Shown here: in pieces, positions 1,283-30,550 of the stretch
Position numbering within the stretch: position 1 is the first letter of the stretch
Layout: each line of letters begins with the position of its first letter
NCBI GenBank assembly: GCA_016185725.1
Contig: JACPNA010000042.1
Location: forward strand, 1,681-65,680
Length of the DNA: 64,000 bases
Reading direction: 5' to 3'
From: Candidatus Woesearchaeota archaeon
Lineage (GTDB): Archaea; Nanobdellota; Nanobdellia; Woesearchaeales; GW2011-AR9
Translations under genes and position numbers: made by a program
The notes under the pieces: generated by a model
The model's input: only the letters and a program-made list of their open reading frames with translations
The model's database searches: none
Told to the model about the DNA's origin: nothing

Positions 1283-1353
1283 CTAAAATACCGATTTTTA
1301 AGTTAAAATATTATAAAATACTAATCTACAGATATATATTGATTATGATTTTA

Positions 1354-5741: not shown

Positions 5742-5803
5742 AGATTAAAATACTTTAATGACGGATAAAGTGATAAATTCATATTAAAAAAAAGTAAAAA
5801 AAC

Positions 5804-6910: not shown

Positions 6911-6940
6911 TTTAATAGAAGGAATATTAAAAAAATCATT

Positions 6941-8255: not shown

Positions 8256-9698
8256 ATGGAAAATTACGATGTGATACTAGTAAACCCAGATTTTTTGAGT
8301 ATTTACAATGCCAAATTTCCTCCTTTTGCAGCTATGTTTTTATCATATGCTCTTAAAAAAGCTGGTTACTCCATTAGAATATTTGATACACAATTCGAAA
8401 AAGAAGATAATCTCTATGAATGTATCAAAAATAATAAACCACTATGGGTAGGATTCTCAGTAATGACTGGTCCAACCATAGCTCGAACTTTAAAAATATG
8501 CCAGAAAATTAGAGAGATCTCTTCAGATATAAAAATTGTCTGGGGAGGTCCGCATCCAACTTTACTTCCTAAAGATACTCTTAAACATAAACTTATTGAT
8601 ATTGTAGTCATATCAGAAGGAGAAAAAACCGTTGTGGAATTAACAAAAACACTAAAGAATAATGAAAACTTGGATTTAGTCAATGGAATTGGATATAAAA
8701 AAAATGAAGAGATTATAATTACTAAACCCAGAGAATTTACAACTGATTGGGATAATGAAGTGGGATTAGATTGGGATAATGTCAAAATAAATAATTACAT
8801 TGATTCTCAAGGCAAATATAAAAAAATTTCTTTAATTACTAGTCGTGGCTGTCCTTTTAGATGTAAATTTTGTTGGAATATAATGGCAAATAATAGACGC
8901 TGGAGAGGCTGGTCTGCTGAAAAAGTTATTGAAGAGATACAGCGTTTGCTTCCTTATGGGGTGAATTATATAACTTTAGAAGATGATAATTTTGGAGTTG
9001 ATTTAAATAGAGCTAAAAAAATTTTAAAATTTATGAAAACACGAGATATTTTATGGTCTTTTGAGGGTGTTCGCGTAGGAAAACACATCACCATAGAATT
9101 AATCCAATTTTTCAAAGAAAACAATTGCCATCATCTTTCTTTCGGAGCAGAATGTGGAAACCAGAAAATGCTTGATTACATTGCCAAAGATATTACTGTT
9201 GAACAACTAATTGAATCTGCTAGATTAACCGGACAATATAAATTAGGTGTTAGATATAGTTGGATTATTGGTTTTCCAAAAGAAACGCACGCTGATAGAA
9301 TGGATCTTATATCATTAATCAATAAAATTACTGAATTAAATCCTAATTGCGCTCATTATATTGGTATTTATGGACCTCACCCTGGTTCAGAAATATTTCA
9401 AGAAACTATTGAAGCGGGTTGGATTCCTCCTAAAAATGTAGAAGGATGGTCATTATTTAGAGAAGAAGTAGATTTACCTTACTGCAAAAATATGTGGTAT
9501 TTGAGGAGCATAGCTTTAGCTTGTTTCTTTAAATTTGCAGTAGACTCTTCTTTAAGAGCACACTCAAAAACAAAAATTATTTATAGAATTCCTTTTAAAA
9601 TTTTGAAGTTTGTATCTAACATAAGATGGAAATATAGATTATTCCACTTTCCAATTGAATACAAAATACTAACATTAATAAAAAATAAAATTACTTGA
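8256..9698 (+). CDS. B12-binding domain radical SAM protein (class B rSAM)
   Basis: An N-terminal B12-binding-like domain is followed by the CPFRCKFC CxxxCxxC cluster motif. The protein is 480 aa. Confidence 0.7.
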   Translation: MENYDVILVNPDFLSIYNAKFPPFAAMFLSYALKKAGYSIRIFDTQFEKEDNLYECIKNNKPLWVGFSVMTGPTIARTLKICQKIREISSDIKIVWGGPHPTLLPKDTLKHKLIDIVVISEGEKTVVELTKTLKNNENLDLVNGIGYKKNEEIIITKPREFTTDWDNEVGLDWDNVKINNYIDSQGKYKKISLITSRGCPFRCKFCWNIMANNRRWRGWSAEKVIEEIQRLLPYGVNYITLEDDNFGVDLNRAKKILKFMKTRDILWSFEGVRVGKHITIELIQFFKENNCHHLSFGAECGNQKMLDYIAKDITVEQLIESARLTGQYKLGVRYSWIIGFPKETHADRMDLISLINKITELNPNCAHYIGIYGPHPGSEIFQETIEAGWIPPKNVEGWSLFREEVDLPYCKNMWYLRSIALACFFKFAVDSSLRAHSKTKIIYRIPFKILKFVSNIRWKYRLFHFPIEYKILTLIKNKIT

Positions 9699-14279: not shown

Positions 14280-14284
14280 ACAAA

Positions 14285-16273: not shown

Positions 16274-16304
16274 TAACTAATCTTACTAATAAATTATAGC
16301 TTCA

Positions 16305-17018: not shown

Positions 17019-17049
17019 TTTTAATTTCTTTAATTTTTAAATGTTTCTT

Positions 17050-18795
17050 CTACTCTTTATAGTAAATAGTCCAATAGGTCAAATTCTGGATAGAAAAACC
17101 ATTTTCTAAAAAATTATGCCCCCATCTATTATAAAACTCTGATTCATGATATCGATACACAACAACATAAATCGGAATATTTCTAACTCCTTTCAATTGT
17201 TCTGCCAAATTTTTAGCATTATAATCAACTGCTTCTAATGAATCTCTTCTATATTCAAACAAAGGAGCCTGTTGTTTAAAAACAAACGGATTATATCCTT
17301 GTTTTGCTCGCATAAATGTAAACATAACATAATCAGGATTATAATACCAAGACTTAGTTGGATTGGGAGTTTCCGAACTTCCTGTTCCTGGAGCATGCAA
17401 TAATATTTTAAAATCCTGCTTAGATTTCAAATAATCCAATAACTGATCATTCTTCTCTCCAGAATCTTGATATGTTTTATTATACATCCAGATATCAACT
17501 AAAAACAAAGAAACGACAAAAGTTAGTATCACCAAAAAATAAATTATTTTCTGGCGTTTCTTAAATGTTAAATCAACCAGAGAATATAATCCATATGCAG
17601 AAGCAATTATGACCAAAGGAAAAGCATGAACAATATACCTGATTTGATGATTAGACATTCTCAATGAAAAATATAAATAAATAGCTAAAAAAAACAAGGA
17701 GATAATAACCATCTGTTTTCTTGTTTCTTTATCCTCAATTTTACCTTTAATAAGCAAATAAATAACATAAAAGAAGAACAACGTAAAAAATAAAGTTCTT
17801 TGCAGATAACCATGAATCATATAGGTAAAATTAGAAAATAATGTGCCCCGCCCCATCCAAGGATAGTTTAAAGATAAATAATTTAGATCATGAGTGCAAT
17901 CTCTTATCTCTTGAGAAGAAGTTGTTATAATCCTCTCTAAAAAATGATTATCAAATAAATTATATTTTAGCCATTGATAACTAATTAGCAAAAACACCAA
18001 ATTTTGCAAAAAAGCAACAAATATAATTTGCAACGCCCCTGAATCACCCAATATTTTCCAATTTAGTTTATATCCCGCTTCTTTTTTATCCTCCCAATAT
18101 TTCGCCAAAATCAAATAAATAAAATAAATCACAAAAAAGATATCTATAAATAAAGCCCCCGAATATTGAATCAACGTAGCCAAAGTCAAAAACAATCCCC
18201 CTATTAAGATATTCCAACTAAAATTAACATAAAAATCCTTAAAAAACTTAATTCTATAATTTTTCTTGACCGCGCGTACAAATGTAAAATAATACCAAAA
18301 TAAAGTCATCATCGCAATTGGTATGGGTGCTAAAGCTTGAATAGCACTATACATATAAAATAAAGTTGACATTATTAAAATAATAGAAGAACTTAATGCT
18401 ACTATCTCTTTCTTTGTTGCGCGTAAAGCAATTATATATACTAAAATAGCGCTGATTATGGAACAAATCAACGCCATAAATCGTATCGCAAAAAAAGTTG
18501 GCCCAAAAATAAAATAAAAAAGAGCTCTGATAAGACCATCAATCGGCGGATCAATATTCGCAAACCAGCCCGCATTATATCCCATTTGTTGATATTTATT
18601 GACAAATTCATCAAAAGGAACATAACTATCAAATAGTATCGTTTTAATATAATCATGCCAAATCATTCCTCCTGCCGCATGTCTTGATTCGTCATAAGAT
18701 AATTGAATGGTATCAAAAGTTGCAGAAATCCAAAAACTATAAACTATTAAAAACAAAACCAGCACAATGACATAAGGAGATACCTTCAATTTCAT
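17050..18795 (-). CDS. GT-C-fold membrane glycosyltransferase candidate (ArnT/PMT, GT39/83-like)
   Basis: The 581-aa protein has about 12 TM helices and an N-terminal loop ...SYDESRHAAGGMIW typical of the ArnT/PMT family. It lies immediately downstream of a GT2 gene. Confidence 0.45.
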   Translation of the reverse strand: MKLKVSPYVIVLVLFLIVYSFWISATFDTIQLSYDESRHAAGGMIWHDYIKTILFDSYVPFDEFVNKYQQMGYNAGWFANIDPPIDGLIRALFYFIFGPTFFAIRFMALICSIISAILVYIIALRATKKEIVALSSSIILIMSTLFYMYSAIQALAPIPIAMMTLFWYYFTFVRAVKKNYRIKFFKDFYVNFSWNILIGGLFLTLATLIQYSGALFIDIFFVIYFIYLILAKYWEDKKEAGYKLNWKILGDSGALQIIFVAFLQNLVFLLISYQWLKYNLFDNHFLERIITTSSQEIRDCTHDLNYLSLNYPWMGRGTLFSNFTYMIHGYLQRTLFFTLFFFYVIYLLIKGKIEDKETRKQMVIISLFFLAIYLYFSLRMSNHQIRYIVHAFPLVIIASAYGLYSLVDLTFKKRQKIIYFLVILTFVVSLFLVDIWMYNKTYQDSGEKNDQLLDYLKSKQDFKILLHAPGTGSSETPNPTKSWYYNPDYVMFTFMRAKQGYNPFVFKQQAPLFEYRRDSLEAVDYNAKNLAEQLKGVRNIPIYVVVYRYHESEFYNRWGHNFLENGFSIQNLTYWTIYYKE

Positions 18796-18881
18796 TAATA
18801 AACCTTAAAACAACCATCACTCTTAAAACCTTCGAACTAAAGCATAAGATATATAAATAGTTTATTGTTTTTTTTAATCTC

Positions 18882-19796
18882 ATGAAAGTCACAAAAATTC
18901 AGGAAAGTAACCCCCTTTTAAACATAATAATAAGTATTCCTGCTTACAACGAAGAAGCAACCATTGGTCAGGTTATCCAAGATATCAAAAACACCTTAAA
19001 ATTAACCGATTACAATTACAAAATTCTTGTTCTAAACGATGGCTCTACTGATAACACTGCTGAAATATCAAAAAAAAATGGTGCTATTGTGATATCAAAC
19101 AAACGAAACCTTGGCTTAGCCGAAACCTTTAAACGTGAAATGCAAGAATTCCTTACATTAAAAGCGGACATAATTGTTCATACCGATGCTGATGGACAGT
19201 ACCCTTCCCATTATATCCCTGAACTAATTAAGAAAATAGAAGAAGGCAATGACCTTGTTCTAGGTAGCCGTTTTGGCAAAGGTAAATATGAAGGTTCAAT
19301 ATTAAAAAAACTAGGCAATATAACTTTTGCCAAAGTATTTTCCAATCTACTAAAAACTAACATAACTGATACAACTACCGGCTTCCGTGCTTTCACTAAA
19401 GAAGTAGCTCAATTACCCTTAATTAACAATTTTACCTATACCCAAGAACAATTAATTCGTGCAGGGAAGGCAAAAATGCACATTGCTGAAATTCCTATTA
19501 CTACCCAAGAAACTCCTCGTCCCAGTCGTCTTTTCAAAAACCCCTTTGATTACGCTATTAAAGCCTGGATTAATATTTTTAGAATTTATCGTGACTTTGA
19601 ACCTCTCAAATTCTTTGGTAGAATTGGTGCATTATTTTTAGGAGTGGGATTTTTATTAGGAATTTGGATACTTTATTTATGGTTAACAACAGGTTCGGTT
19701 GGCGCTTTGCCAAGAGTAATTTTAAGCATGCTTTTAATAACAACCGGAATACAGATAATGCTCTTTGGCTTTTTAGCAGATATGAATAAAAAATGA
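18882..19796 (+). CDS. GT2 glycosyltransferase with C-terminal TM anchor (polyprenyl-phosphate sugar synthase-like)
   Basis: It contains IISIPAYNEEATI...LVLNDGSTDNT and TDADGQ, and has two C-terminal TM helices. Confidence 0.8.
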   Translation: MKVTKIQESNPLLNIIISIPAYNEEATIGQVIQDIKNTLKLTDYNYKILVLNDGSTDNTAEISKKNGAIVISNKRNLGLAETFKREMQEFLTLKADIIVHTDADGQYPSHYIPELIKKIEEGNDLVLGSRFGKGKYEGSILKKLGNITFAKVFSNLLKTNITDTTTGFRAFTKEVAQLPLINNFTYTQEQLIRAGKAKMHIAEIPITTQETPRPSRLFKNPFDYAIKAWINIFRIYRDFEPLKFFGRIGALFLGVGFLLGIWILYLWLTTGSVGALPRVILSMLLITTGIQIMLFGFLADMNKK

Positions 19797-20752
19797 ATTA
19801 TTCGAAAATAAAAAATTTATCGAAAAATATCCTAAAAATATCTGTTACTATTTTGATTATAATTTTTCTGATTTATAAAATAGGATTGAACAACCTAATT
19901 TCCACTTTATCTTCAGCCAACATATTAATTCTTTTAGTGATAATTCCGATAAAATTAATCTCTTTATTATTTACAACTTTAAACATAAAAATATTACTGG
20001 ATGTAATTAAAAAAAAAATAACTTTTTACAAATTATTTATTTATTCCAATCTTGCTTGGTCTATAGGCTTATTCCTTCCTGGTCGTCTAGGTGAATTTTC
20101 TCTTAGTCATTTTTTACAAGAAGAAGATTATACCTTAGGAGAAAGCGCTGCTGTTTCTTTATTAGATAAAATAAGTACATTTATTGTATTAGGCATATTA
20201 TCAATATTAGCCATACTCAAATATTTTGATACAATTTATGCCCTACAATTTTCTTTAATTCTTTTAACAATCTTAATCATCAGTTTATTTTTATTATCCA
20301 ACGAAAAAATAAGAAATATAATAAAGCAAAAAATCTTAGGAAAATATTCCTTATTATTTTATGGCTTTTATACTTCTTTTAAAGATATTCTAATAAATCA
20401 TAAAAAAATCTTTATATTAAACCTTCTTACCACATTAATCAAATGGAGTTTTAGTTTTCTTACTATTAAGATAATATTTATATCTTTAGGAACACCAACA
20501 CACTTTCTTGATATATCTTATATTACTTCCCTTTCCATGATTATTGCCTTAATTCCTATTAGCATAGGAGGGATTGGATTAAGAGAATCAACGGCAGTTT
20601 ATCTCTTTAATATTGTTTATATAAAACCAGAAATTACTTTAGCAGCACATTTAATTAATATTGCATTGAATTATATTATTGCTTTCATATTTATAACATT
20701 TAACTGGGACCTAATCAAAATCAACAAAGAAAAATATTCCAGCAAAAAATGA
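19793..20752 (+). CDS. PF03706/UPF0104 flippase-like membrane protein
   Basis: It overlaps the upstream GT2 stop by 4 nt and carries the motif LPGRLGEFS. It has 8 TM helices and is a paralog of the 10451-11425 protein. Confidence 0.5.
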   Translation: MNYSKIKNLSKNILKISVTILIIIFLIYKIGLNNLISTLSSANILILLVIIPIKLISLLFTTLNIKILLDVIKKKITFYKLFIYSNLAWSIGLFLPGRLGEFSLSHFLQEEDYTLGESAAVSLLDKISTFIVLGILSILAILKYFDTIYALQFSLILLTILIISLFLLSNEKIRNIIKQKILGKYSLLFYGFYTSFKDILINHKKIFILNLLTTLIKWSFSFLTIKIIFISLGTPTHFLDISYITSLSMIIALIPISIGGIGLRESTAVYLFNIVYIKPEITLAAHLINIALNYIIAFIFITFNWDLIKINKEKYSSKK

Positions 20753-20809: not shown

Positions 20810-22945
20810 TTAATTTTTAACATTGAAGTTTCCATTCAAAATCTCCTCCACTCTAAAACAAATTTCCATTGATTCATATGCCTTATTCGCATCAATCAAT
20901 TCTGATTTTTCTCCGCGTAATTTTTTCAACAATTCTACAAGTTCAGCATAGTGCCCTTTATCTTGTTTTATACTGGATTTTTTACCATTAATAAACAACT
21001 GTTCAAAATCATCTAATACTGCAACATTACCTCCGCCAAATATCTCAATTCTTTCTTTAGATAAAGTATCATTAGCATAATCAGTATACACTAAAGTAGC
21101 AACAGATCCATCCCCATATTTAATCGTGACTGCCGCATTATTACTATCTATAACTCTTCCGTCCGAATTGATCTTATAAGCATTAATCTCTGAAAAACGA
21201 GTTCCAATTATATAATTAAAAAAACTAAACATATGGCACATCTCTCCTATAATCCTTCCCCCGCCTTCCTCTGGATCATTAACCCAATCCTCTCTTCCCG
21301 TCGGCTTGGTATTAACGCGATAATTAATTATTAGCGGATAATCACGTGTTTCAAAAAATGATTTAACCTGCTGAGTCAGAGGAGCATAATTTCTATTGAA
21401 ACCAACACTATACACCAATCCCTTCCCCTTCAACGTATTTAAAATGCTCCTGCATTCCTCTCGAGTAATCCCCATTGGTTTCTCTACAAATACCTGCTTC
21501 CCTTTTTTTAATGCTTCAATAGCAATTTTAGCATGTAAATTATGCCTTGTTGAAATAACCACTAAATGTATATCTTTATCATTAAGTACTTCTGTATAAT
21601 CTGCAGAACAATACTCCGCTCCATTAAGTAACGCTAAATTTTTAGCAGAACCTGGGTTTTTTGTTACAATGGCTTTGAGATTAAAATCATCTATCTTTTT
21701 AACATTAACTAAATGCGTGCCTTTTGCAAAATTTCCCGCACCAATTAGACCAACATTTATCTTTCCCACTATCTTTTTATTTGATGTAACTAAGCGCAAC
21801 GGCTCTTCCTTATTAAGTTCCTGGGGATAACTCAAAAGTACTATTAACGGAACAGGATTAGCTTTACTCAATGTTAAATATGCTTCTTCTGCCTCATCAA
21901 TTGAAAATTCTTTCTCTATTAACTCTTCAACAGAAATTTTCCGTTCCGCTAACAACCGTAAAAACTCTTGCATATTTCTATTTTCTGTCCATCGAACATA
22001 TCCCAAAGGATAATCCTGGCCTTTTTCCTCATAGTCTTTATCATATCTCCCCGGTCCGTATGAAGTAGAAATTAAAAAATCTAACTCTTTTTTATACATA
22101 ACCTCCCTATTGATAGTTATCGGAACCTTGCCCAACAATACAACTCTTCCTTTTTTTCTGCACATTTCCATAGAATTATTTATTATGTCCTTATTATCTG
22201 TGGCTGCACTGATGATTACACCATCTACACCTATCCCTTTCGTAAAATGAATTGCATTTTTAACAAAATCTGTTGTAAAAAATCTATGAACCTTAGCTTT
22301 TTTAGCTCTTTTTTCATTGATATCAATACCAATAACCTGACAGCCGATAGCACTGAGGATCTGACAAACTATTTGTCCTAACAATCCTAAACCATACACC
22401 ACAATAATCTCTCCGAATGAAGGATTTAATCTTCTCACACTTTGAATTGCTATTGAACCTATAGTTGTTAACGAAGCTTCTTTTAAAGAAACATTCTTAG
22501 GAATTTTTACAACTAAATTTTTAGGCACACAAACAATTTCCGCATGGCTCGCATAATTTTGTCCTCCGCAAGCAACATCATCATTAACAGAAAATTCCCT
22601 GACATTCTTGCCAACTTCCATCACCTTGCCAGAACAACTATATCCCAACCGCCACCAATTATTTAACATTTGTTTAACATAATTATACGTTTTGAAATAC
22701 CCCTCTTTTTTAGCCTTAATTATAACACTCTTAACCAACTCTTTCTTTTCTAAAGCAGTTTGATATAGCGGCTGTTTTAATTTTTTAACCGTATTCAGTT
22801 CCGTTCCGCTGCTTATTACAGAATACAAAACCTTAACTTTAACTTCATTATCTCCGCAGACAGGAACTGTAACTTCTTCAACCTGTACTCTCCCTTTCTT
22901 AGCAAAAACTTGTTTCATAGTAATACTACTCCATTTTAGCAACAA
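20810..22945 (-). CDS. Bi-domain oxidoreductase. The N-terminal part is a zinc-type MDR alcohol dehydrogenase and the C-terminal part is a Gfo/Idh/MocA NAD(P) oxidoreductase.
   Basis: The N-terminal domain has GroES-like and Rossmann regions (VVYGLGLLGQIV). The C-terminal domain begins KINVGLIGAGNFAKGTHL (Gfo/Idh/MocA). The whole protein is 711 aa. Confidence 0.7.
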   Translation of the reverse strand: MLLKWSSITMKQVFAKKGRVQVEEVTVPVCGDNEVKVKVLYSVISSGTELNTVKKLKQPLYQTALEKKELVKSVIIKAKKEGYFKTYNYVKQMLNNWWRLGYSCSGKVMEVGKNVREFSVNDDVACGGQNYASHAEIVCVPKNLVVKIPKNVSLKEASLTTIGSIAIQSVRRLNPSFGEIIVVYGLGLLGQIVCQILSAIGCQVIGIDINEKRAKKAKVHRFFTTDFVKNAIHFTKGIGVDGVIISAATDNKDIINNSMEMCRKKGRVVLLGKVPITINREVMYKKELDFLISTSYGPGRYDKDYEEKGQDYPLGYVRWTENRNMQEFLRLLAERKISVEELIEKEFSIDEAEEAYLTLSKANPVPLIVLLSYPQELNKEEPLRLVTSNKKIVGKINVGLIGAGNFAKGTHLVNVKKIDDFNLKAIVTKNPGSAKNLALLNGAEYCSADYTEVLNDKDIHLVVISTRHNLHAKIAIEALKKGKQVFVEKPMGITREECRSILNTLKGKGLVYSVGFNRNYAPLTQQVKSFFETRDYPLIINYRVNTKPTGREDWVNDPEEGGGRIIGEMCHMFSFFNYIIGTRFSEINAYKINSDGRVIDSNNAAVTIKYGDGSVATLVYTDYANDTLSKERIEIFGGGNVAVLDDFEQLFINGKKSSIKQDKGHYAELVELLKKLRGEKSELIDANKAYESMEICFRVEEILNGNFNVKN

Positions 22946-22977
22946 TATTTAAATATTTTGAAGTTCAAATCCCTTTA

Positions 22978-24870
22978 ATGACAAATAAGCTAAAGTTTTA
23001 TAGTAACAGACTTAAATGTATGAGTTTGCCGGAACTTCTCTACCGAATTAAATGGAAAACCAAACTAGAAACATATTATAAAATTTTAAGCTTAAAACAA
23101 CAAAAAATAAACCTTCCATTTGAACAATTACAGCAAGATTTTAACTCAACAAAATTTTGGTTTGAATATTCCCAAGAAAAAAACAAAGAAAAAATATTAC
23201 AAGAATATTATCCTAATCTTACCCCAAAAAGCACCATCTCAAAAGCTAATGCCTACCTGCAACACACCATTCCCATCTATGAACTTAGAAAAAACCTTGG
23301 GAAAGAAATAAATTGGAACAAAGATTACAAAACAGAAAAGATTTGGACACGCCAATTCATTGGTAAAATCCATCATGCAGATTCTAATTATGGTTATGTT
23401 CGCTACATTTGGGAGCTTAATCGCTGTAATCACCTCGTAACTTTAGCCCAAGCTTATTTTCTCACTGAAAACGAAAAATACGCTCAAGAGATCATTAGCC
23501 AAATAGGATCCTGGATTGGACAAAACCCTTACTTGAAAACTATCAACTGGTTTTCCGGATTAGAATTAGGAACCCGTATCATCAACTGGACCATTGCTCT
23601 AAAACTCATCAAAAAATCATCGTATTTGACACAAGAAAGATTAAATAACGCCTTATCATCAATTTATCTCCAAACAGATTTTACTTATCATAACCTATCT
23701 AAATACTCTTCTGCTAACAACCATTTGGTAGGAGAATTAGCAAGTATCAAATTAACAACTGCTGTCTTCCCCCACTTCCCTCACGCTAAAAAATGGAACA
23801 AAATAAGTACAAAAAAAATAGACCGTGAAATACTTCAACAAATTTATGAAGACGGTGTAGGTAAAGAGCAATCAGTAAATTACTTATTATTTATCCTAGA
23901 CCTCTATTTTTGGAGTTCCTTGGCTATTGACCAAGAAATAAAACCAGAAATAAAAACAAGAATAATAAAAAGTAGAGAATTCTTATCCGCCCTAGAAATA
24001 GGAACATTTCTACCATCCATTGGCGATACTGATGAAGCCTATGTATCCGGCATTCATTCTGAAAAAGAAAGAATTAATTTCTTTAACCATTGGACTGCCA
24101 AAATCAATCATAACCCACAAATCAAAAATACCCCTAGCAAACTATTCCCCTTAGGCGGCTATTTCATCTCAAAAAACACTGCACAAAACACCACTTTAAT
24201 CTTCGACTGTGGTCCTCTTGGCTACCTTTCTACTTCCGGACATGGTCACTGTGATGCCCTTAGTTTTATCCTCACCATAAACAACAAACCATTTTTTACT
24301 GATCCTGGAACGTATGTCTATCATGAAGGAAAAGAATGGCGTAATTACTTCAAATCCACTGAAGCACACAATACTATCAAAATTGATCAAAGAGATCAAT
24401 CGCAAATAACTGGTCCATTCACCTACGGAAAAAAAGCCCAAACAAAAATAATCAATTCCAAAATCAATCCCATAATTGACGAAATTACTGCTTCACATAA
24501 CGGCTATAAAAACAGAGGAGTAATTCATCAACGTACAATAACCCATGACAAAAAAGCACAAGAAATTACTATTTTAGACATATTACAAACAAAAAACAAT
24601 AAACCGCATGAATTATCTCTCTTCTTCAATTTATCTCCAACAATAAAAATACAAGAATCATCAAATAATCACTTCATTTTATCCCAAGAAAAAACAAAAA
24701 TAAAACTAACTTTAGATCCCTCATTAAATACTACGCAACACCATGGCGAAACAAACCCTATTTTTGGTTGGAATTCACCTCAATTCGGCATAAAAATACC
24801 CTCCTTGTGCTTAGAAAGTACAACTAAAATAACCACAACTACGACCTTTAAGACAACAATCACTTATTAA
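22978..24870 (+). CDS. Heparinase II/III-like family protein (polysaccharide lyase-like fold; function in glycan biosynthesis unknown)
   Basis: It contains NWFSGLELGTRIINW (Hepar_II_III_N) and a GHGHCDALSF motif, and has 630 aa. Confidence 0.65.
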   Translation: MTNKLKFYSNRLKCMSLPELLYRIKWKTKLETYYKILSLKQQKINLPFEQLQQDFNSTKFWFEYSQEKNKEKILQEYYPNLTPKSTISKANAYLQHTIPIYELRKNLGKEINWNKDYKTEKIWTRQFIGKIHHADSNYGYVRYIWELNRCNHLVTLAQAYFLTENEKYAQEIISQIGSWIGQNPYLKTINWFSGLELGTRIINWTIALKLIKKSSYLTQERLNNALSSIYLQTDFTYHNLSKYSSANNHLVGELASIKLTTAVFPHFPHAKKWNKISTKKIDREILQQIYEDGVGKEQSVNYLLFILDLYFWSSLAIDQEIKPEIKTRIIKSREFLSALEIGTFLPSIGDTDEAYVSGIHSEKERINFFNHWTAKINHNPQIKNTPSKLFPLGGYFISKNTAQNTTLIFDCGPLGYLSTSGHGHCDALSFILTINNKPFFTDPGTYVYHEGKEWRNYFKSTEAHNTIKIDQRDQSQITGPFTYGKKAQTKIINSKINPIIDEITASHNGYKNRGVIHQRTITHDKKAQEITILDILQTKNNKPHELSLFFNLSPTIKIQESSNNHFILSQEKTKIKLTLDPSLNTTQHHGETNPIFGWNSPQFGIKIPSLCLESTTKITTTTTFKTTITY

Positions 24871-25909
24871 CATTTATTTCCAACAAAACAGAATCCACGA
24901 TAATATTGGCCGTATTAACCAATTGTGTATCAATTATTCCCTTTATTTTTAATAACCATTTCTTTTTCTCTTTTTCATTCAATAATTCATCTATTTTCTT
25001 AAAAATATCTTTCTCTTCTTCTATCTTATAAATTCCTCCCCAACTCAAAAAAGGATTGTTCGCATACATTTCTCTACCACCGGTATAAATGCATGGTACT
25101 CCTAATAACGCTGATTCTCTCGCCATACTATCCCCCGAAGACAAGCAAAACAAAGCATAATACATTATCGAATAAACATCATCTAATGGTTCTTCTAATA
25201 TTGTACAATAAGGAGCATAAAATTCTCTTCTAGACTTATCTTCTAAAGAAAGCATTACTTTTATTCCTTTTTCCTGTAAATATTTTATAGAACTAACCAA
25301 CCCTTCTTGTTTGAGATTAGTATAATTCATACTAATCCCTGCTACCTCTCTTACAAAAACATAATTATTCTGTTCTAATCTTAAATCTTCAATTATTTTC
25401 TTTTTAGGTTTGTAAAAATCAGGGTGTAAATAAGCCAGCTCTTTAAATCCCCCATAAGCAACTATTTTCTTTGACCGTTTTGGAATTACCTTTGGAATTA
25501 TTAATTTATTAGCAAAAAAATAAGATAAACTAAAATTCAATTTAAATTCATAATCATCATAAAATAAAATTGATTTTATACCTAACAATCGAGAACAGAA
25601 TGCTAACGTAAAATCACCCACCCCTAACGTTAAACTAGCCTTGTTTTTTTTTAAATATTGTAATAGTCCTTTAATCCGCTTCATCACCATAAAAATTTTA
25701 CCAAAAGTATTCGGACTATATACTCCTATTTTTGTTAACGTATACGCGGGAAATTCTTTTTGTAATACTTTTTCTATTTTTCCCCTATCTAAATAAACAA
25801 TTTCTATCTCAAACCCTCTTTTATTAAGTTCTCTAATAGCCTTCTTAAAAAAATTCAAATGCGCTAAATGTATCACACTAAAAATAATTTTATTTGCTAT
25901 TGTCTTCAC
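24860..25909 (-). CDS. DUF354-family protein (GT-B/UDP-GlcNAc 2-epimerase-like fold)
   Basis: The 349-aa protein has a tandem Rossmann-like architecture, a glycine-rich C-terminal half (GGREMYANNPFLSWGG) and a sequence character typical of archaeal DUF354. Confidence 0.4.
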   Translation of the reverse strand: MKTIANKIIFSVIHLAHLNFFKKAIRELNKRGFEIEIVYLDRGKIEKVLQKEFPAYTLTKIGVYSPNTFGKIFMVMKRIKGLLQYLKKNKASLTLGVGDFTLAFCSRLLGIKSILFYDDYEFKLNFSLSYFFANKLIIPKVIPKRSKKIVAYGGFKELAYLHPDFYKPKKKIIEDLRLEQNNYVFVREVAGISMNYTNLKQEGLVSSIKYLQEKGIKVMLSLEDKSRREFYAPYCTILEEPLDDVYSIMYYALFCLSSGDSMARESALLGVPCIYTGGREMYANNPFLSWGGIYKIEEEKDIFKKIDELLNEKEKKKWLLKIKGIIDTQLVNTANIIVDSVLLEINVNK

Positions 25910-25937: not shown

Positions 25938-27236
25938 TCAAACAAGTAATTTATAATTTTTAAATTCTGATCCTTTTTTCTTCAATAAGCCGTTTAAATC
26001 AATAATCTTCCCCTCATACCATTTTAATTTATCAATGCCTAAATAATCTACTGACCCTATAATTATAGTGTCAAATTTATTCAAATCTGGTTCTTTTACC
26101 GCCAAAAGTCCCATTTGTGGCAGTGTACTTTCAATAAATGTTTTATTAGCTCCTAATAATAAATCTTGTTCAAAAAGATTATCTACAAATTGTACATTGT
26201 AATTTAAATCCTTCAAATTACGCATTAACTTAACGTATGGGCTTTCTCTAAAATCATCTGTTCCATTCTTAAAAGTTATCCCTGAAATTAAAATATTTTG
26301 AGGATTTCCCTCTGTGATTTTTTGTAATGAATATCGTATCTGTTCATCATTCGATTTCATTACTGATTCTAAAACTAATGGAAATGTGCCCGAAGTTAAA
26401 GTTAAAATACCTTTCAAATCCTTCGGTAAACATGAACCCCCAAACGCAAATCCTGGTTTTAAATAATAAGGAGATAAATTTAAAGTCTTATCTTGACAAA
26501 AAATATTCATAATCTTATGGCTATCTATGCCTAATTCATTGCAAATTCTCCCTATCTCATTGGCAAACCCTACTTTTAACCCATGAAATGCATTATTAGT
26601 ATACTTAAATATCTCCGCTTCTTCTAACTTAACACGATGAATATTTTCTTTAACCCCTATCTTATCATAAAATTGTTCTAATAAATCGCCAGATTTTCCA
26701 TCAGCTTGACCAATTATTGTAAATGGTGGATGATAAAAATCTTGCACCGATGTGCCTTCCCTTAAAAATTCAGGGTTCATGCATCCCCCAAAACTTTTCC
26801 CCAGATATAATCCTGAATTTTTTTCAATGACTTTAATAAAATTTTGAGTTGTTCCAGGAGGAACAGTACTTCGAATAACAAATAGATGATAACCAGATTT
26901 ATTACGCAATTCTAAATTTAATTGTTCAGCTAAATTAGATATAGCATCTAAATTAATGCTGCCGTCTTCTCTTGATGGGGTTCCTACACATATAAATGAA
27001 ATATCAGTCTCATGTAAGACTTCCCCTAATGACTCTGTAACTTTAATCCTTTGTTTTCTTACTCCTTCTAATAATAACGCCGAAACTTCTTTCTCCTTAA
27101 AAGGAGAAACCCCTTTTTGAATAAGAGCATTCTTTTTTACATCAATATCATATCCCAAAACTGTAATACCTTCTTGTGCTAAGCAACCGGCAAGTGTTGC
27201 TCCTACATAACCAAAACCAAACACACTAACCTTCAT
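25938..27236 (-). CDS. Nucleotide-sugar 6-dehydrogenase (UDP-ManNAc/UDP-GlcNAc/UDP-Glc dehydrogenase family)
   Basis: It has an N-terminal NAD fold (VFGFGYVGATLAGCLA) and the catalytic Cys motif GGSCLPKD, and has 432 aa. Confidence 0.8.
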   Translation of the reverse strand: MKVSVFGFGYVGATLAGCLAQEGITVLGYDIDVKKNALIQKGVSPFKEKEVSALLLEGVRKQRIKVTESLGEVLHETDISFICVGTPSREDGSINLDAISNLAEQLNLELRNKSGYHLFVIRSTVPPGTTQNFIKVIEKNSGLYLGKSFGGCMNPEFLREGTSVQDFYHPPFTIIGQADGKSGDLLEQFYDKIGVKENIHRVKLEEAEIFKYTNNAFHGLKVGFANEIGRICNELGIDSHKIMNIFCQDKTLNLSPYYLKPGFAFGGSCLPKDLKGILTLTSGTFPLVLESVMKSNDEQIRYSLQKITEGNPQNILISGITFKNGTDDFRESPYVKLMRNLKDLNYNVQFVDNLFEQDLLLGANKTFIESTLPQMGLLAVKEPDLNKFDTIIIGSVDYLGIDKLKWYEGKIIDLNGLLKKKGSEFKNYKLLV

Positions 27237-28201
27237 TTGGGATTCCTCCTAAAATTATACACCAAATCATACCACTCCACCAACCTTCTCACACCTTCTT
27301 CAATACTGACTTTTGGTTCATAACCTAACATTTCCCTGCTTTTAGAAACATCGGCAAATGTCATCTCTACATCCCCTTGCTGTTTCTCCACATATCGAAT
27401 TTTCACCTTTTTATTTAAATTATTCTCAATTAATGAAACAAAATAATTTAGTTGTACTGGATTTGCACCACCTAAATTAAATAGTTCATATTTATGGCTC
27501 TTATCCAACGCAGCTACAACTCCCCCAACAATATCGCTAATATAAGTATAATCTCGTCTAGATGTTCCCTCTCCATAAATTTCTATCTCTTCTCCTCGAG
27601 CAATCTTATCCACAAATTTAAATGGAGCCATGTCCGGCCTTCCTCTTGGACCATATACCGTAAAGAATCGCAAACAAGAACAATTTAAATCATAAAGATG
27701 ATTATAATTATAACAAAATAACTCTCCCGCTTTCTTACAAGCAGCATAAGGAGATATCGGCTTATCAACCATATCTGTTTCTTTAAAACAACCCTCTGTC
27801 CTATTACCATAAACCGAAGAACTTGACGCAAACACGAAATTATCTATCCCATATTGTTTTGCCAATTCCAACAAATTAAGCGTCCCTCTAATATTAACCT
27901 CTTCGTATAAAAAAGGATTATTAATCGAAGGTCTAATCCCTGCTCGAGCCGCTAAATGTATTATCTTCCGTGGATTTTCTTTTTCAAAAACACTTCGCAT
28001 TAACGAAAAATCTAAAATATCCCCGCGACATAATCGACAATTTCTTTTTTCTAAACAATCAACAATATTCCGCTCCTTAATCCTTGGATTATAATAATCA
28101 TTAAAATTATCCACACAAACAACTTCATCTTCTCGCGCTAACAATTCTTCACAAACATGGCTTCCGATAAATCCTGCTCCGCCTGTAACTAATATTTTCA
28201 T
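27233..28201 (-). CDS. UDP-glucuronate 4-epimerase-like SDR (NAD-dependent epimerase)
   Basis: It contains [24 protein letters not shown] (YxxxK) and RFFTVYGPRGRPDMA, which is characteristic of UDP-GlcA 4-epimerases. Confidence 0.7.
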   Translation of the reverse strand: MKILVTGGAGFIGSHVCEELLAREDEVVCVDNFNDYYNPRIKERNIVDCLEKRNCRLCRGDILDFSLMRSVFEKENPRKIIHLAARAGIRPSINNPFLYEEVNIRGTLNLLELAKQYGIDNFVFASSSSVYGNRTEGCFKETDMVDKPISPYAACKKAGELFCYNYNHLYDLNCSCLRFFTVYGPRGRPDMAPFKFVDKIARGEEIEIYGEGTSRRDYTYISDIVGGVVAALDKSHKYELFNLGGANPVQLNYFVSLIENNLNKKVKIRYVEKQQGDVEMTFADVSKSREMLGYEPKVSIEEGVRRLVEWYDLVYNFRRNPK

Positions 28202-28204
28202 ATT

Positions 28205-29155
28205 CTACTCTCCGATCAACCCTCTAAAATATGTTATTGTCTTTTTCAAACCATCTTCTAAATCTATCCTTGGCTCCCAATCTAATTTCTTTTTAGCTAA
28301 ACTTACATCTGGTTTACGTTTACAAGGATCATCTTGGGGCAATTTTTGATAAACAATCCTGCTTTTACTCCCGGTATAAGCAATAACTTTCTCCGCTAAT
28401 TCCAACATTGTAAATTCATTAGGATTACCTAAATTAACCGGTCCATTGAAATTTTCACAATTCATCATTTTAATCATACCCGCAACTAAATCATCAACAT
28501 ACTGAAAACTTCTCGTTTGTTTTCCATCGCCATAAATTGTAATATCCTTGCCTTCTAACGCTTGCACAATAAAATTACTAACCACTCTGCCATCATTTTT
28601 TGCCATTCTCGGTCCATAAGTATTAAAAATTCTCACAATTCTCACCTCTACATAATTCTGGCGATTATAATCAAAAAATAACGTTTCCGCAACCCGTTTG
28701 CCTTCATCATAACATGCCCTTATCCCATCACAATTGACATTACCTTTATAACGTTCAGTTTGCGGATGTTCTAGCGGATCACCATACACTTCCGAAGTTG
28801 ACGCTTGTAATATTCTCGCTTTGTGTTTCTTAGCTAAACCTAACATATTTATTACCCCAATAGTATTAGCTTTAATCGTTCTAATAGCATTATACTGATA
28901 ATGTACTGGTGAAGCGGGACAAGCTAAATTATAAATTTCATCAACATGTTTATCCGCAAAATAAGGATTTATAATATCATGTTCAACAAATTCAAAATTA
29001 TTATCACTTAACAAATGTTTAATATTCTCCTCACTTCCCGTAAATAAATTATCTACACAAATAACATTTTCTCCATTAGACAACAATTTCTCGCATAAAT
29101 GGCTTCCAATAAATCCTGCTCCTCCTGTAACCAGAATATTTTTTTTCTTTATCAT
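28205..29155 (-). CDS. UDP-glucuronate decarboxylase (UDP-xylose synthase, UXS)
   Basis: It contains [19 protein letters not shown]...[18 protein letters not shown] and YDEGKRVAE (YxxxK), a typical UXS signature. It has 316 aa. Confidence 0.75.
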
Positions 29156-30480: not shown

Positions 30481-30550
30481 AACAATAAACCTCCAAAATA
30501 AGCTTCTAACCCCATTAGTTAAAAGAGATATAATAAACACCTAAACTATC

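Follow-up and report, generated by a model that had tools for sequence, protein, structure and literature searches.

A divergent gene pair in the glycan island of a Woesearchaeota archaeon may encode two proteins that together form an epimerase system for manno-uronic acids, which would act in the cytoplasm during glycan assembly and not in degradation. We give this reading a probability of roughly 0.4. The pair lies in the window, that is, the whole 64-kb stretch of DNA analysed, and consists of a bi-domain oxidoreductase gene and a heparinase-III-like gene with a short palindrome between them:

20810..22918, minus strand: bi-domain oxidoreductase, 702 aa (Pfam; 100% identity to MBI2662485.1)
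22944..22957, no strand: perfect 14-nt palindrome AATATTTAAATATT inside the divergent intergenic region (from the sequence)
22978..24870, plus strand: heparinase-III-like (PL12-like) protein, 630 aa (Pfam, PDB profile search, AF2 model)

The pair had been noticed in a first-pass annotation. That observation is confirmed, and the interpretation given with it is partly supported.

The heparinase-III-like protein

The 630-aa heparinase II/III-family protein with a GHGHCDALSF motif was correctly recognized in the first-pass annotation, and its ORF carries both Pfam domains of the family (Hepar_II_III_N, 98.7 bits; Hepar_II_III_C, 159.1 bits). The gene caller starts it at Met15 (616 aa, P0001), and the N-terminal consensus of the family, MxxxxxxYxxRLxxMSxPExxYR, fits the 630-aa form. 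Residues of this protein are numbered here on the 616-aa Met15 form (alignment A1); the 630-aa form is obtained by adding 14. The catalytic residues of PL12 are kept (N234, H235, Y288 and H408), while H410 and D412 are specific to the family. The catalytic set is invariant across 34 diverse members and maps onto Asn240, Tyr294 and His424 of HepIII, the catalytic roles of which have been reported (PMC12088678).

Profile searches of the PDB matched the protein to 5jmd (E 2.4e-44) and 4mmh (E 1.7e-37). With its AF2 model (pLDDT 90.4), Foldseek placed PL12 at the top, followed by PL33, 17, 15, 35, 39 and 21. Heparinase III/HepC (PL12; PDB 4MMH, 5JMD, 4FNV) is the best match in both sequence and fold, sharing the two Pfam domains, the (alpha/alpha) toroid/beta-sandwich fold, the catalytic Asn/Tyr/His and many nearby residues. 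Nevertheless, the identity is only 18-20%, the NCBIfam HepC score is 91 bits against a cut-off of 700, and the invariant His410 of an HGHxD motif stands where HepIII has Gln. Unlike HepC, the protein has no signal peptide, is found in biosynthetic and not in polysaccharide-utilisation loci, and in some cases forms a fusion with GT4. Such natural fusions are of the types GT4-hep and GT4-GT4-hep (P0256, P0272, P0337, P0363), in a family that, at E<=1e-30, counts 11,070 cluster representatives.

No signal peptide, TM segment or hydrophobic N-terminus was seen in the protein, and its N-terminal helix is kept across the family; because of these two features it is predicted to be cytoplasmic. A signal peptide together with intact lyase residues had been named in the first-pass annotation as speaking for a secreted, degradative role. 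The former is absent and the latter are present. The intact residues cannot separate a lyase from a C5-epimerase, and a true lyase fits them equally.

Uronate C5-epimerases related to lyases are known, namely dermatan-sulfate epimerase 1 (DS-epi1, modelled on heparinase II) and the alginate epimerase AlgG. Their principle is the one proposed here, in which the C5 proton next to the carboxylate is abstracted in the manner of a lyase and the other face is re-protonated during biosynthesis. Both, however, stand outside the lyase-like family, are extracytoplasmic and act on finished polymers; AlgG is a beta-helix, and DS-epi1 is absent from the best 50 fold matches of the model.

Partners of the lyase-like gene

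The island carries further genes around the pair:

8256..9698, plus strand: B12-binding radical SAM protein, 480 aa (Pfam)
12236-13894, plus strand: PMT/DUF6541-like (GT-C-type) large membrane protein (Pfam)
14285-16273, minus strand: PMT/DUF6541-like (GT-C-type) large membrane protein (Pfam)
16305-17018, minus strand: GT2 (Pfam)
17050-18795, minus strand: PMT/DUF6541-like (GT-C-type) large membrane protein (Pfam)
18882-19796, plus strand: GT2 polyprenyl-phosphate-sugar-synthase-like gene (Pfam, NCBIfam)
19793-20752, plus strand: flippase-like LPG_synthase_TM gene (Pfam, NCBIfam)
24860..25909, minus strand: DUF354 protein, 349 aa (Pfam DUF354, 71.5 bits; weak MurG similarity)
25938..27236, minus strand: AlgD-like GDP-mannose 6-dehydrogenase, 432 aa (PDB 1mfz match)

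The steadiest partners of the lyase-like family are AlgD-like GDP-mannose 6-dehydrogenases and GT-B glycosyltransferases. AlgD-like orthologues occur in 45 of the 81 related loci with enough flank, 33 of them within 600 nt, and GT4 genes in 37/63, where flippases, chain-length regulators and WecG are also present. Translational coupling of the lyase-like gene to GT4 genes is also seen. The AlgD-like protein of the window matches the GDP-mannose 6-dehydrogenase 1mfz over residues 1-418 (E 2.3e-100, 339.5 bits), whereas the best UDP-glucose dehydrogenase reaches 190.9 bits; a bacterial representative gives 536 bits with AlgD vs 232. The window protein is the predicted source of GDP-mannuronic acid. 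This dehydrogenase, the most constant partner of the lyase-like gene, had been missed in the first-pass annotation.

The DUF354 gene is convergent with the lyase-like gene, with an 11-nt overlap, and holds the place taken by GT4 in bacterial loci. It adjoins the AlgD-like gene in L084, L086, L168 and L169; no solved structure was found among the relatives of its product, which probably serves the archaeal module as its GT-B glycosyltransferase. The B12-binding radical SAM protein, all of whose NCBIfam matches fall under the cut-off, resembles C-methyltransferases and probably belongs to the same module, its family being encoded immediately upstream of the lyase-like gene or next to the oxidoreductase gene in L084, L086, L167, L168 and L169. 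The GT2 and LPG_synthase_TM gene pair is also present in L086, L167, L168 and L169, while L084 has only an LPG_synthase_TM-methyltransferase fusion at the contig edge. The PMT/DUF6541-like proteins and GT2, whose counterparts in L167 and L168 also flank the module, are presumed to use lipid-linked sugar donors outside the membrane.

Throughout the bacterial and archaeal neighbourhoods compared, the loci are biosynthetic glycan loci. This bears on the idea of a catabolic pair, in which a cytoplasmic oligo-uronate lyase and a reductase for the unsaturated monomer would work as in alginate utilisation (PL15/PL17 and DEH reductase). Cytoplasmic PL15/PL17 oligo-alginate lyases with the same fold do exist, and a lyase beside an oxidoreductase superficially recalls such a system. 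The evidence nonetheless weighs heavily against it, as transporter, kinase and aldolase genes are absent nearby, every neighbourhood examined consists of glycosyltransferases, nucleotide-sugar enzymes, flippases and polymerases, and the lyase-like domain is fused to GT4. We regard it as highly improbable.

A genuine uronate lyase in a biosynthetic locus is a more serious alternative, even if an unlikely one. Its task would be the trimming, termination or recycling of faulty mannuronate chains, and the oxidoreductase would be an unrelated, co-regulated tailoring enzyme. Cognate housekeeping degraders such as AlgL (alginate) and BcsZ (cellulose) are common in polysaccharide operons. The full PL12 catalytic set is kept, as is most of the architecture of the active site; the nearest folds are lyases without exception, and relatives carry the PGAP name 'alginate lyase family protein'. 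However, housekeeping lyases and hydrolases are extracytoplasmic and have signal peptides, which this family lacks, and the fusion and translational coupling to GT4 would set degradation at the site of synthesis. A lyase would also leave the ManNAcA-to-GalNAcA gap of Ralstonia, described below, unexplained.

Recurrence of the pair

The pair was said to recur in bacterial surface-polysaccharide loci, and it does. Among 80 loci seeded with the lyase-like gene, 7 contain the oxidoreductase and the majority do not; among 80 seeded with the oxidoreductase, 16 contain the lyase-like gene (15 of the 16 within 2.5 kb). The two homologue lists gave 14 same-contig coincidences besides. About three quarters of the oxidoreductase loci have no lyase-like gene, and the commonest neighbour there is an asparagine-synthase-like amidotransferase (33/80). 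In the archaeal relatives L167-L169 the lyase-like gene is present and the oxidoreductase absent. The oxidoreductase thus often accompanies the lyase-like gene, though as a facultative partner, and the two enzymes, therefore, need not act in sequence on one carbon skeleton.

Wherever a 6-dehydrogenase is visible in a pair-containing locus, it is of the manno type (13/13; nine AlgD-like, four WecC with WecB). For the chemistry, earlier described simply as unknown, the field is now limited to uronic acids of the manno configuration.

The bi-domain oxidoreductase

The maximal ORF of the oxidoreductase (20810..22945, minus strand) runs for 711 codons from TTG 22945 without an internal stop, and an overlooked stop splitting it into two genes, a concern raised earlier, is not there. 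The start is likely ATG 22918; the 702-aa form that it gives is 100% identical to MBI2662485.1, 'bi-domain-containing oxidoreductase [Candidatus Woesearchaeota archaeon]' (NCBI). Four Pfam domains were detected (ADH_N, 24.9 bits; ADH_zinc_N, 55.8; GFO_IDH_MocA, 85.4; GFO_IDH_MocA_C3, 32.8), with an MDR half at about residues 1-365 and a Gfo/Idh/MocA half at about 386-690. At least 7,998 database proteins match the fusion, and the top matches listed align over 92-100% of the query with 44-90% identity. Judged from the sequences, the fusion is genuine and no artefact.

Invariant residues include GLGLLG (176-181), D199, GAGxFA (393-395), E479-K480-P481 and H562, as well as the family signature S284-YGPGRYD...VRWTExRN315. 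The latter, the most conserved motif of the family, falls in a low-confidence loop of the AF2 model (pLDDT 88.4, pTM 0.83). The Gfo half has the Rossmann motif, the EKP motif and the catalytic His, and its nearest neighbours in sequence and structure are pyranoside C3-dehydrogenases: KanD2 (6JW6), GenD2 (6NOR), levoglucosan dehydrogenase (6A3F), SqgA (8QC3) and DgpA (7XR9), along with the archaeal UDP-GlcNAc 3-dehydrogenase NF040723. Its scores, though, are far under the equivalog cut-offs, and unlike these enzymes it is permanently fused to an MDR domain, which carries the signature.

The label 'zinc-type' given to the MDR half does not hold, since Ser33 and Tyr93-Ser94 replace the Cys and His-Glu of Zn-ADHs. 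Its best alignments are to Zn-free quinone oxidoreductases and enoyl reductases, the best matches including CurK, JamJ, Zta1 and QOR, and the subgroup is also kin to BchC-type alcohol dehydrogenases (NCBIfam bchC match). The enoyl-reductase likeness, together with the intact lyase residues, would suit a deoxygenation in which the lyase fold removes the substituent or hydroxyl at C4 by elimination and so forms a 4,5-unsaturated uronate, the MDR half reduces the double bond and the Gfo half adjusts C3, yielding a 4-deoxy uronic acid. Against this stand the BchC kinship, the lack of any tie between the pair loci and a known 4-deoxy-uronate glycan, and the sugars listed for the EPS I of Ralstonia, among which there is no deoxy-uronate (PMC3759889); such a route is quite improbable.

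The Ralstonia EPS I and Parabacteroides loci

In the eps operon of Ralstonia solanacearum (CP022482.1), the same two families are adjacent as CFM90_25485 and CFM90_25490, labelled 'dehydrogenase' and 'heparinase'. They follow the genes for UDP-GlcNAc 2-epimerase and UDP-ManNAc dehydrogenase and precede a WbuB-type GT4; in a Parabacteroides capsule locus, the pair lies beside WecC/WecB, which stand for UDP-ManNAcA synthesis. Both pairs are translationally coupled by a start-stop overlap. The Ralstonia pair is co-directional and would draw on UDP-ManNAcA, whereas that of the window is divergent, with GDP-ManA as precursor. The oxidoreductases share 35% identity over 674 aa, the lyase-like proteins only 20%, the Ralstonia protein being of a distant subfamily.

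Among the sugars of EPS I, galactosaminuronic acid is included and mannosaminuronic acid is unlisted (PMC3759889). In the literature searched, no assigned function was found for the two eps genes. The GalNAcA of EPS I is reportedly the L-form (Orgambide et al. 1991). As L-galacto is the C3,C5-epimer of D-manno, L-GalNAcA is the 3,5-epimer of D-ManNAcA.

The same net change, D-manno to L-galacto by inversion of C3 and C5 in a GDP-activated sugar, is brought about by GDP-mannose 3,5-epimerase. That is a single enzyme of the SDR family which forms a transient 4-keto group on a neutral sugar, while the pair comprises two proteins with three unrelated domains and a uronic acid. Its logic could be split over both proteins: one oxidoreductase domain would oxidise C4, the lyase fold or spontaneous enolisation would invert C5 and C3, and the other domain would re-reduce C4. 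The equal net result suits the Ralstonia context, a chain with two nucleotide-binding domains is apt for a cycle of oxidation followed by reduction, and start-stop overlaps of the two genes are seen in Ralstonia, Parabacteroides and L170. Yet the nearest relatives of the Gfo half oxidise C3 and not C4, lyase-fold chemistry has no need of a 4-keto group, and the lyase-like protein would be non-functional in the many loci without the oxidoreductase, which makes this scheme improbable.

The intergenic region and the origin of the pair

The head-to-head layout is kept in the archaeal relatives L084 and L086. The gap of 32 nt reported earlier holds as an ORF-to-ORF distance; measured from one probable start codon to the other, the gap is 59 nt (22919-22977). 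The suggestion of a shared promoter region is plausible, and the palindrome AATATTTAAATATT offers a concrete candidate. It carries a TATA-like TTTAAATA box on either strand, the two being opposed; the centre lies roughly 27 nt away from ATG 22978 and roughly 32 nt away from ATG 22918. The palindrome is unique in the 64 kb even with one mismatch allowed; 0.39 matches are expected by chance, and 34/100 shuffles had at least one. L086, a distant relative, has an exact copy between its own oxidoreductase and lyase-like genes (9966-9979), at distances of 29.5 and 28.5 nt from their ATGs, and no second copy elsewhere in the locus. The palindrome is a candidate bidirectional archaeal TATA element, from which the pair is probably co-expressed.

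Horizontal acquisition of the pair, also suggested earlier, finds no compositional support as a recent event: GC, GC3 and strand-specific skew are all native. From sequence divergence, any inter-domain transfer would be older than the split from relatives at 37-46% identity.

Proposed function

In the proposed epimerase system, the AlgD-like dehydrogenase would make GDP-D-mannuronic acid. In the lyase-like protein, Asn would neutralise the carboxylate, with Tyr and His as base and acid at C5, and C5-epimerisation from D-manno to L-gulo during biosynthesis is the most likely outcome. It would work alongside a GT-B glycosyltransferase (DUF354 in the archaeon, GT4 in bacteria), on a substrate that may be nucleotide- or lipid-linked. 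The oxidoreductase would perform a second inversion, at C3, by oxidation and re-reduction, the Gfo/Idh/MocA half acting like a pyranoside C3-dehydrogenase and the Zn-free MDR half providing the second hydride step. The site of oxidation (C3, C4 or C2) is a guess from the fold neighbours. A comparable logic is seen in DprE1/DprE2, the oxidation-reduction epimerisation system of decaprenyl-phospho-ribose, where an oxidase and a reductase, as separate enzymes, invert one stereocentre of a lipid-linked sugar; these, however, are two proteins and not a fusion, have FAD oxidase and SDR folds, and act at C2.

No biochemical data for any member of either family were found in the literature searched. 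The net result would be a 3,5-epimerisation from D-manno to L-galacto, giving L-GalA in the archaeon and L-GalNAcA from UDP-ManNAcA in Ralstonia, while loci without the oxidoreductase would carry out the C5 inversion only. The pair would thus fill the vacant ManNAcA-to-GalNAcA step in the main slime polysaccharide of the wilt pathogen Ralstonia.

A divergent gene pair with a shared control element

According to the first-pass annotation, a fusion of a zinc-type alcohol dehydrogenase and a Gfo/Idh/MocA dehydrogenase stands head-to-head with a heparinase II/III-family protein. Pfam domains and open reading frames bear out this arrangement.

20810-22918, minus strand: bi-domain oxidoreductase (MDR + Gfo/Idh/MocA)
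22944-22957, between the two genes: perfect 14-mer palindrome, AATATTTAAATATT
22978-24870, plus strand: heparinase-III-like (lyase-like) protein

The minus-strand frame runs without interruption over 20810-22945, and the overlooked stop that might have split it is absent. Its likely start is ATG 22918, which gives 702 aa, the length of MBI2662485.1 (Candidatus Woesearchaeota, DPANN), to which it is 100% identical. The NCBI name of that protein and of a Parabacteroides homologue is ‘bi-domain-containing oxidoreductase’, and the MDR and Gfo/Idh/MocA parts do lie in one chain of about 700 aa. The plus-strand frame encodes 630 aa with both heparinase II/III Pfam domains; this start is favoured by the N-terminal consensus of the family over the Met15 start of one gene caller. 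Residues of the lyase-like protein are numbered here as in the 616-aa Met15 form of the family alignment (A1); adding 14 gives their numbers in the 630-aa form. The gap between the genes is short, as was claimed, but the real start codons are 59 rather than 32 nt apart.

The palindrome carries one TTTAAATA box per strand. The boxes are centred upstream of their genes, the plus-strand one about 27 nt from ATG 22978 and the minus-strand one about 32 nt from ATG 22918, a spacing expected for archaeal TATA boxes of leaderless or near-leaderless transcripts. No second match was found in the 64-kb window, even with one mismatch. In L086, an archaeal locus with relatives of both genes, the identical 14-mer lies between these genes as well, at 29.5 and 28.5 nt from their ATGs, and nowhere else in the 22-kb locus, while the proteins themselves are merely 43% and 65% identical to those of the window. 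Another archaeal locus, L084, has a 134-nt gap with separate TATA-like boxes and not the palindrome. Since the element is the sole match in the window and recurs between the same genes in L086, its standing as a candidate bidirectional control element of both genes, with a predicted promoter role, is well supported, in line with the shared promoter region proposed earlier. TTG 22945 falls within the palindrome and is unlikely to be the start codon of the oxidoreductase.

The lyase-like protein

The lyase-like protein scores 98.7 bits with Hepar_II_III_N and 159.1 bits with Hepar_II_III_C (Pfam cut-offs 22 and 24). Its AF2 model (pLDDT 90.4, pTM 0.90) is helical up to about residue 363 and consists of strands thereafter, that is, an (alpha/alpha) toroid with a beta-sandwich. 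Through Foldseek, the model was matched to 5jmd (E 2.2e-26) and 4fnv (TM 0.68); the nearest solved folds are PL12 lyases, followed by those of PL33, PL17, PL15, PL35, PL39 and PL21. A profile of 34 diverse members finds heparinase III structures at E 2e-44 to 2e-37. Once the +24 offset in the numbering of chain 4MMH is taken into account, N234, Y288 and H408, invariant across the 34 sequences, align to HepIII Asn240, Tyr294 and His424, which in PL12 act as neutraliser (Asn240) and base/acid (Tyr294/His424) (PMC12088678). Domains, fold and the catalytic Asn/Tyr/His all mark the protein as PL12 heparinase III-like.

It scores far below HepC, with 91 bits for equivalog NF045573 (cut-off 700) and 83 bits for NF045572 (cut-off 600). 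A secreted, degradative role had been named as the finding that would overturn a biosynthetic one, and here the picture is divided: the catalytic residues are kept, but the hydrophobic N-terminus of HepC-type export is missing and the neighbours are biosynthetic instead of belonging to glycosaminoglycan utilisation. The N-terminus is a conserved hydrophilic helix, common to bacterial and archaeal members, including the Ralstonia protein.

The family comprises 11,070 cluster representatives at E<=1e-30. In one 1147-aa protein (P0485), a heparinase-like domain is joined to F420-dependent oxidoreductase domains (FrhB/FdhB-like) and 4Fe-4S clusters, which makes a second, different type of redox/lyase-fold fusion. 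No NCBIfam equivalog scored at its cut-off with either the lyase-like protein or the oxidoreductase, and the full-text literature search returned nothing specific to the pair. Both proteins belong to annotated families which, as far as that search showed, are uncharacterised.

The two halves of the oxidoreductase

Pfam detects PF01408 (85.4 bits) and PF22725 (32.8 bits) in the oxidoreductase. The Rossmann motif G393-x-G395, the motif E479-K480-P481 and the catalytic H562 are invariant in its family, as expected of Gfo/Idh/MocA members. This half is closest to enzymes that oxidise pyranosides at C3, namely KanD2, GenD2, levoglucosan dehydrogenase, SqgA and DgpA.

The other half exceeds the cut-offs of ADH_N (24.9 bits) and ADH_zinc_N (55.8 bits) and is an MDR protein at the fold level, with an invariant GLGLLG at 176-181 and fold matches of TM 0.72-0.81. 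The label ‘zinc-type’ has to be given up: Ser33 and Tyr93-Ser94 occupy the positions of the Cys and His-Glu ligands of zinc-dependent MDR alcohol dehydrogenases. A helical insert (39-85) replaces the structural zinc lobe, and the best alignments are with the Zn-free enoyl/quinone reductases CurK, JamJ and QOR (‘LGYDFSG’). A 4-deoxygenation route through this ene-reductase-like half is a conceivable but very unlikely role for it. The strongest signature of the family, SYGPGRYD...VRWTExRN (284-315), lies in a low-confidence loop in an otherwise confident model. At least 7,998 database proteins match the fusion family; among the top matches listed, which come from Bacteria and Archaea, query coverage is 92-100% and identity 44-49%.

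Genomic partners and the tightness of the pairing

As the earlier annotation held, the pair recurs in bacterial polysaccharide loci; the Ralstonia EPS I operon and a Parabacteroides distasonis capsule locus are two such cases. The pairing is real but facultative. When 80 bacterial reference-genome loci were seeded with the lyase-like protein (each at <=35% identity), the oxidoreductase was present in 7. Conversely, 16 of the 80 metagenome loci seeded with the oxidoreductase contained the lyase-like gene (11 of 48 with >=6 kb of flank), in 15 of these 16 within 2.5 kb and on the same strand. At least 14 of the best 120 oxidoreductase homologues are on contigs of exactly the same length as those of top matches of a second lyase-like subfamily, and hence on the same contigs. 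The oxidoreductase was not found in the archaeal relatives L167-L169. Its commonest neighbour overall is an asparagine-synthase-like amidotransferase (33/80), which is absent from the window. Counts of neighbours based on ORFs are minimum values, the lyase-like ORF having been missed in 15 high-GC loci; those from tblastn and profiles (7/80, 45/81 and 16/80) are preferred.

The commonest neighbour of the lyase-like gene is a GT4 glycosyltransferase, present in 37 of the 63 analysable loci seeded with it. Other common neighbours are a nucleotide-sugar dehydrogenase, an AMP-ligase-like protein, WecG/TagA, an NTP-transferase, asparagine synthase and chain-length regulators. Some homologues (P0256, P0272, P0337 and P0363) are natural fusions of one or two GT4 domains with the lyase-like domain. 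A genuine housekeeping lyase is an unlikely reading, as both the cytoplasmic location and these fusions speak against it. A catabolic role for the pair is contradicted by every neighbourhood examined and is highly improbable.

An AlgD-like gene occurs in 45 of the 81 loci with enough downstream sequence, and in 33 it is <=600 nt away. The window has one as well, at 25938-27236 on the minus strand. Its product aligns to 1MFZ over residues 1-418, the full length, at 339.5 bits, against 190.9 bits for the best UDP-glucose dehydrogenase; for a bacterial representative these scores are 536 (AlgD) and 232. No dedicated NCBIfam equivalog gave a match, and the gene is, by these scores, a predicted GDP-mannose 6-dehydrogenase of the AlgD type.

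Annotated plasmid loci of the lyase-like gene have likewise biosynthetic surroundings. One of them (L172, Chondrinema litorale plasmid NZ_CP111067.1, 17936-37552) combines it with four sulfotransferases, four GT4, a sugar dehydrogenase and a flippase. With its four sulfotransferases it resembles a glycosaminoglycan-like assembly line. It is a candidate bacterial locus for a sulfated polysaccharide akin to glycosaminoglycans, whose sulfation could be coupled to the epimerisation of uronates.

The pair in Ralstonia and Parabacteroides

The oxidoreductase query matches 132 Ralstonia megaplasmid records. In strain HA4-1, the bi-domain protein is encoded inside the EPS I operon, where the genes come in the order EpsA, a phosphatase, a tyrosine kinase, UDP-GlcNAc 2-epimerase, UDP-ManNAc dehydrogenase, two transporters, a GT4 and an acyltransferase. 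These are followed by the ‘dehydrogenase’ (the bi-domain protein), the ‘heparinase’ (4-nt overlap) and a WbuB-type GT4 (4-nt overlap), after which come the initiating transferase and genes of bacillosamine type. Over 674 aa, the Ralstonia oxidoreductase and that of the window are 35% identical. Its lyase-like partner, at 20% identity (E 3e-17), is a remote member of the superfamily; it retains the motifs NNH, Tyr, H...DAL and HNT...D-RDQ.

The sugars listed for EPS I are N-acetylgalactosamine, a bacillosamine derivative and galactosaminuronic acid, and ManNAcA is not among them (PMC3759889). The operon makes UDP-D-ManNAcA, and the pair and the acyltransferase are its only enzymes without an assigned role. 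The uronic acid of EPS I is reportedly the L-enantiomer.

In the Parabacteroides distasonis capsule locus, the order is GT4, bi-domain oxidoreductase, ‘alginate lyase family protein’ (19-nt overlap), WecC, WecB and GT4. Two more loci (L170 and L001) have the oxidoreductase, the lyase-like gene and an AlgD-like dehydrogenase in a row. A 6-dehydrogenase is visible in 13 of the 30 pair-containing loci and is of the manno type in all 13 (9 AlgD-like, 4 WecC with WecB), with none of them having a UDP-glucose-type enzyme alone.

The archaeal module

Five archaeal relatives at 37-46% identity (L084, L086, L167, L168 and L169) share a wider module. In all five, a B12-radical SAM gene is kept together with methyltransferases and a flippase-like LPG_synthase_TM gene, and most keep a polyprenyl-phosphate-sugar-synthase-like GT2. 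DUF354 and an AlgD-like dehydrogenase of about 406 aa are kept in all except L167, whose contig ends short of their position. PMT-like GT-C proteins are found in L167 and L168. All genes of the module are also present in the window, at 8.2-27.2 kb.

8256-9698, plus strand: B12-binding radical SAM protein that resembles BchE, HpnJ and PhpK-type methyltransferases, with scores below cut-off
10451-11425 and 19793-20752: two LPG_synthase_TM flippase-like genes
within 12236-20752: three large PMT/DUF6541-like GT-C membrane proteins
16305-17018 and 18882-19796: two GT2 polyprenyl-phosphate-sugar-synthase-like genes
24860-25909, minus strand: DUF354 protein

DUF354 has no solved relative and gave just a weak match to MurG. 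The radical SAM gene lies 13 kb from the lyase-like gene in the window, and directly upstream of it or beside the oxidoreductase in the five relatives, which suggests that the same glycan has a sugar with C-methylation or another radical-based modification. The island at 12236-20752 has an unusual density of lipid-linked-sugar machinery, and its layout resembles ArnC/ArnT-type modification systems.

Further sugar genes flank the module, and a second uronic-acid branch adjoins it at 27233-30540 on the minus strand.

701-2334, minus strand, at the left edge of the island: SIS-domain (GmhA-like) gene and GHMP-kinase gene, side by side
4026-5741, plus strand: 571-aa fusion in a single ORF, N-terminal dTDP-glucose-4,6-dehydratase-like SDR and C-terminal nucleotidyltransferase (RmlA-like)
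5804-6910, next after the fusion: DegT-type aminotransferase
6941-8041, after the aminotransferase: GT4
27233-28201, minus strand: GalE/TviC-like epimerase
28205-29155, minus strand: ArnA/UXS-like SDR
29152-30540, minus strand: UDP-glucose 6-dehydrogenase of UDP-glucose type, the second dehydrogenase of the window
30551-33018, minus strand, directly after the sugar genes: two-subunit 2-oxoacid:ferredoxin oxidoreductase

The second uronic-acid branch would yield UDP-GlcA and, probably, UDP-xylose or UDP-GalA. The genes at 4026-8041 look like a compact amino-deoxy-sugar branch, and those at 701-2334 may be the beginning of a nucleotide-heptose pathway. A two-subunit 2-oxoacid:ferredoxin oxidoreductase also follows the sugar genes in L168 (16891-19361), the relative at 43% identity; therefore, the synteny of this central-metabolism enzyme with the glycan island is conserved. 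ARAGORN found no tRNA genes in the 64-kb window despite its large ribosomal-protein operon. The window is archaeal, as its ribosomal proteins L3 and L4 exceed the cut-offs of the archaeal equivalogs.

Strand composition and horizontal transfer

Recent horizontal acquisition, which had been suggested for the pair, finds no footing in composition: GC (0.34 and 0.335), GC3 (0.27 and 0.30) and codon distance are all inside the range of the window. The codon usage of the lyase-like gene is somewhat deviant, like that of all other plus-strand genes past 12 kb, because these share a strand-wide excess of C; therefore, the gene has long been resident in its present orientation.

Past about 12 kb (12000-64000), the plus strand is C-rich regardless of gene orientation, with a coding-strand GC skew of -0.08 to -0.31 in plus-strand and +0.22 to +0.44 in minus-strand genes. 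In plus-strand genes at 2.5-12 kb, the skew is positive. The pattern resembles a strong asymmetry of the strands, linked to replication or transcription, which may switch near 10-12 kb.

In a rough NJ tree, built without bootstrap, all lyase-like proteins of archaeal-type contexts form one clade nested among bacterial sequences, while that of Methanobacterium oryzae falls with Parabacteroides instead. This pattern fits a family that is mainly bacterial and has crossed between the domains repeatedly and long ago, and not a recent acquisition.

Proposed chemistry

D-manno and L-galacto sugars differ at exactly C3 and C5. The lyase fold is suited to removing the C5 proton beside a carboxylate, and C5-epimerisation begins in the same way. 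An epimerase is proposed because the UDP-D-ManNAcA made by the EPS I operon is not listed in the polymer, because these two positions are the ones to be changed, and because the lyase fold takes the C5 proton while the Gfo half, joined in one chain to a second domain for hydride transfer, is similar to C3-dehydrogenases. For the C5-epimerase class, the support is contextual: the cytoplasmic location, the GT4 fusions, the adjacent manno-uronate synthesis and the gap in the Ralstonia pathway.

The lyase-like protein would thus be a cytoplasmic uronate C5-epimerase acting with a GT-B transferase, and the oxidoreductase would invert C3 by oxidation and re-reduction. In the window, the mannuronate of GDP-ManA would become an L-galacturonate residue; where relatives lack the oxidoreductase, L-guluronate would result. 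We give this proposal as a whole, drawn from context, a probability of about 0.4. A broader version is more doubtful. In it, the two proteins would form a hitherto unrecognised 3,5-epimerase for activated or lipid-linked manno-uronic acids, with C5 handled by the lyase fold and C3 by the double oxidoreductase, and would supply the missing route to L-galacto-uronic acids (L-GalNAcA in Ralstonia EPS I, L-GalA in the surface glycan of the present DPANN archaeon). On its own, beside the AlgD-like dehydrogenases of thousands of bacterial loci, the lyase-fold protein would produce cytoplasmic L-guluronate for non-alginate heteropolysaccharides.

The known lyase-fold C5-epimerases, GDP-mannose 3,5-epimerase and the redox epimerisation by DprE1/DprE2 are similar in chemistry to what is proposed here, but differ in their parts. 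A C4-keto, GME-like division of labour between both proteins is quite unlikely.

Two other connections were considered and set aside. The archaeal GlcA C5-epimerase Agl32 is an AglQ-like protein of 372 aa, whose fold resembles that of cellobiose 2-epimerase. A role in pseudomurein (3,5-epimerisation of GlcNAcA to N-acetyl-L-talosaminuronic acid) is not supported: the window is from Woesearchaeota, the Methanobacterium oryzae pair stands in an ordinary Wzx-type glycan locus, and the subfamily of its lyase-like member is also found in Methanosarcinales and Methanocella, with none among the named matches from Methanobrevibacter or Methanothermobacter.

The finding is real, and the 3,5-epimerisation chemistry is a testable, unproven hypothesis.

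Significance

To our knowledge, the entry of L-uronic acids into bacterial and archaeal surface polysaccharides, beyond the polymer-level epimerisation of alginate and animal glycosaminoglycans, appears largely unassigned. A very large family (>11,000 sequence clusters), misleadingly named ‘alginate lyase family protein’ or ‘heparinase II/III family protein’, is here tied to cytoplasmic glycan assembly through its adjacency to the synthesis of GDP-ManA or UDP-ManNAcA. The pair in the EPS I operon of Ralstonia solanacearum offers a genetically tractable test case, EPS I being a major virulence factor. If the proposal is true, thousands of annotations would be corrected, a new enzymatic solution to 3,5-epimerisation would be added, and sugar composition would be easier to predict from capsule and O-antigen loci, including those of gut Bacteroidales and methanogens. 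For the DPANN archaea, the module suggests an acidic, mannuronate-derived surface glycan that is built via lipid-linked intermediates.
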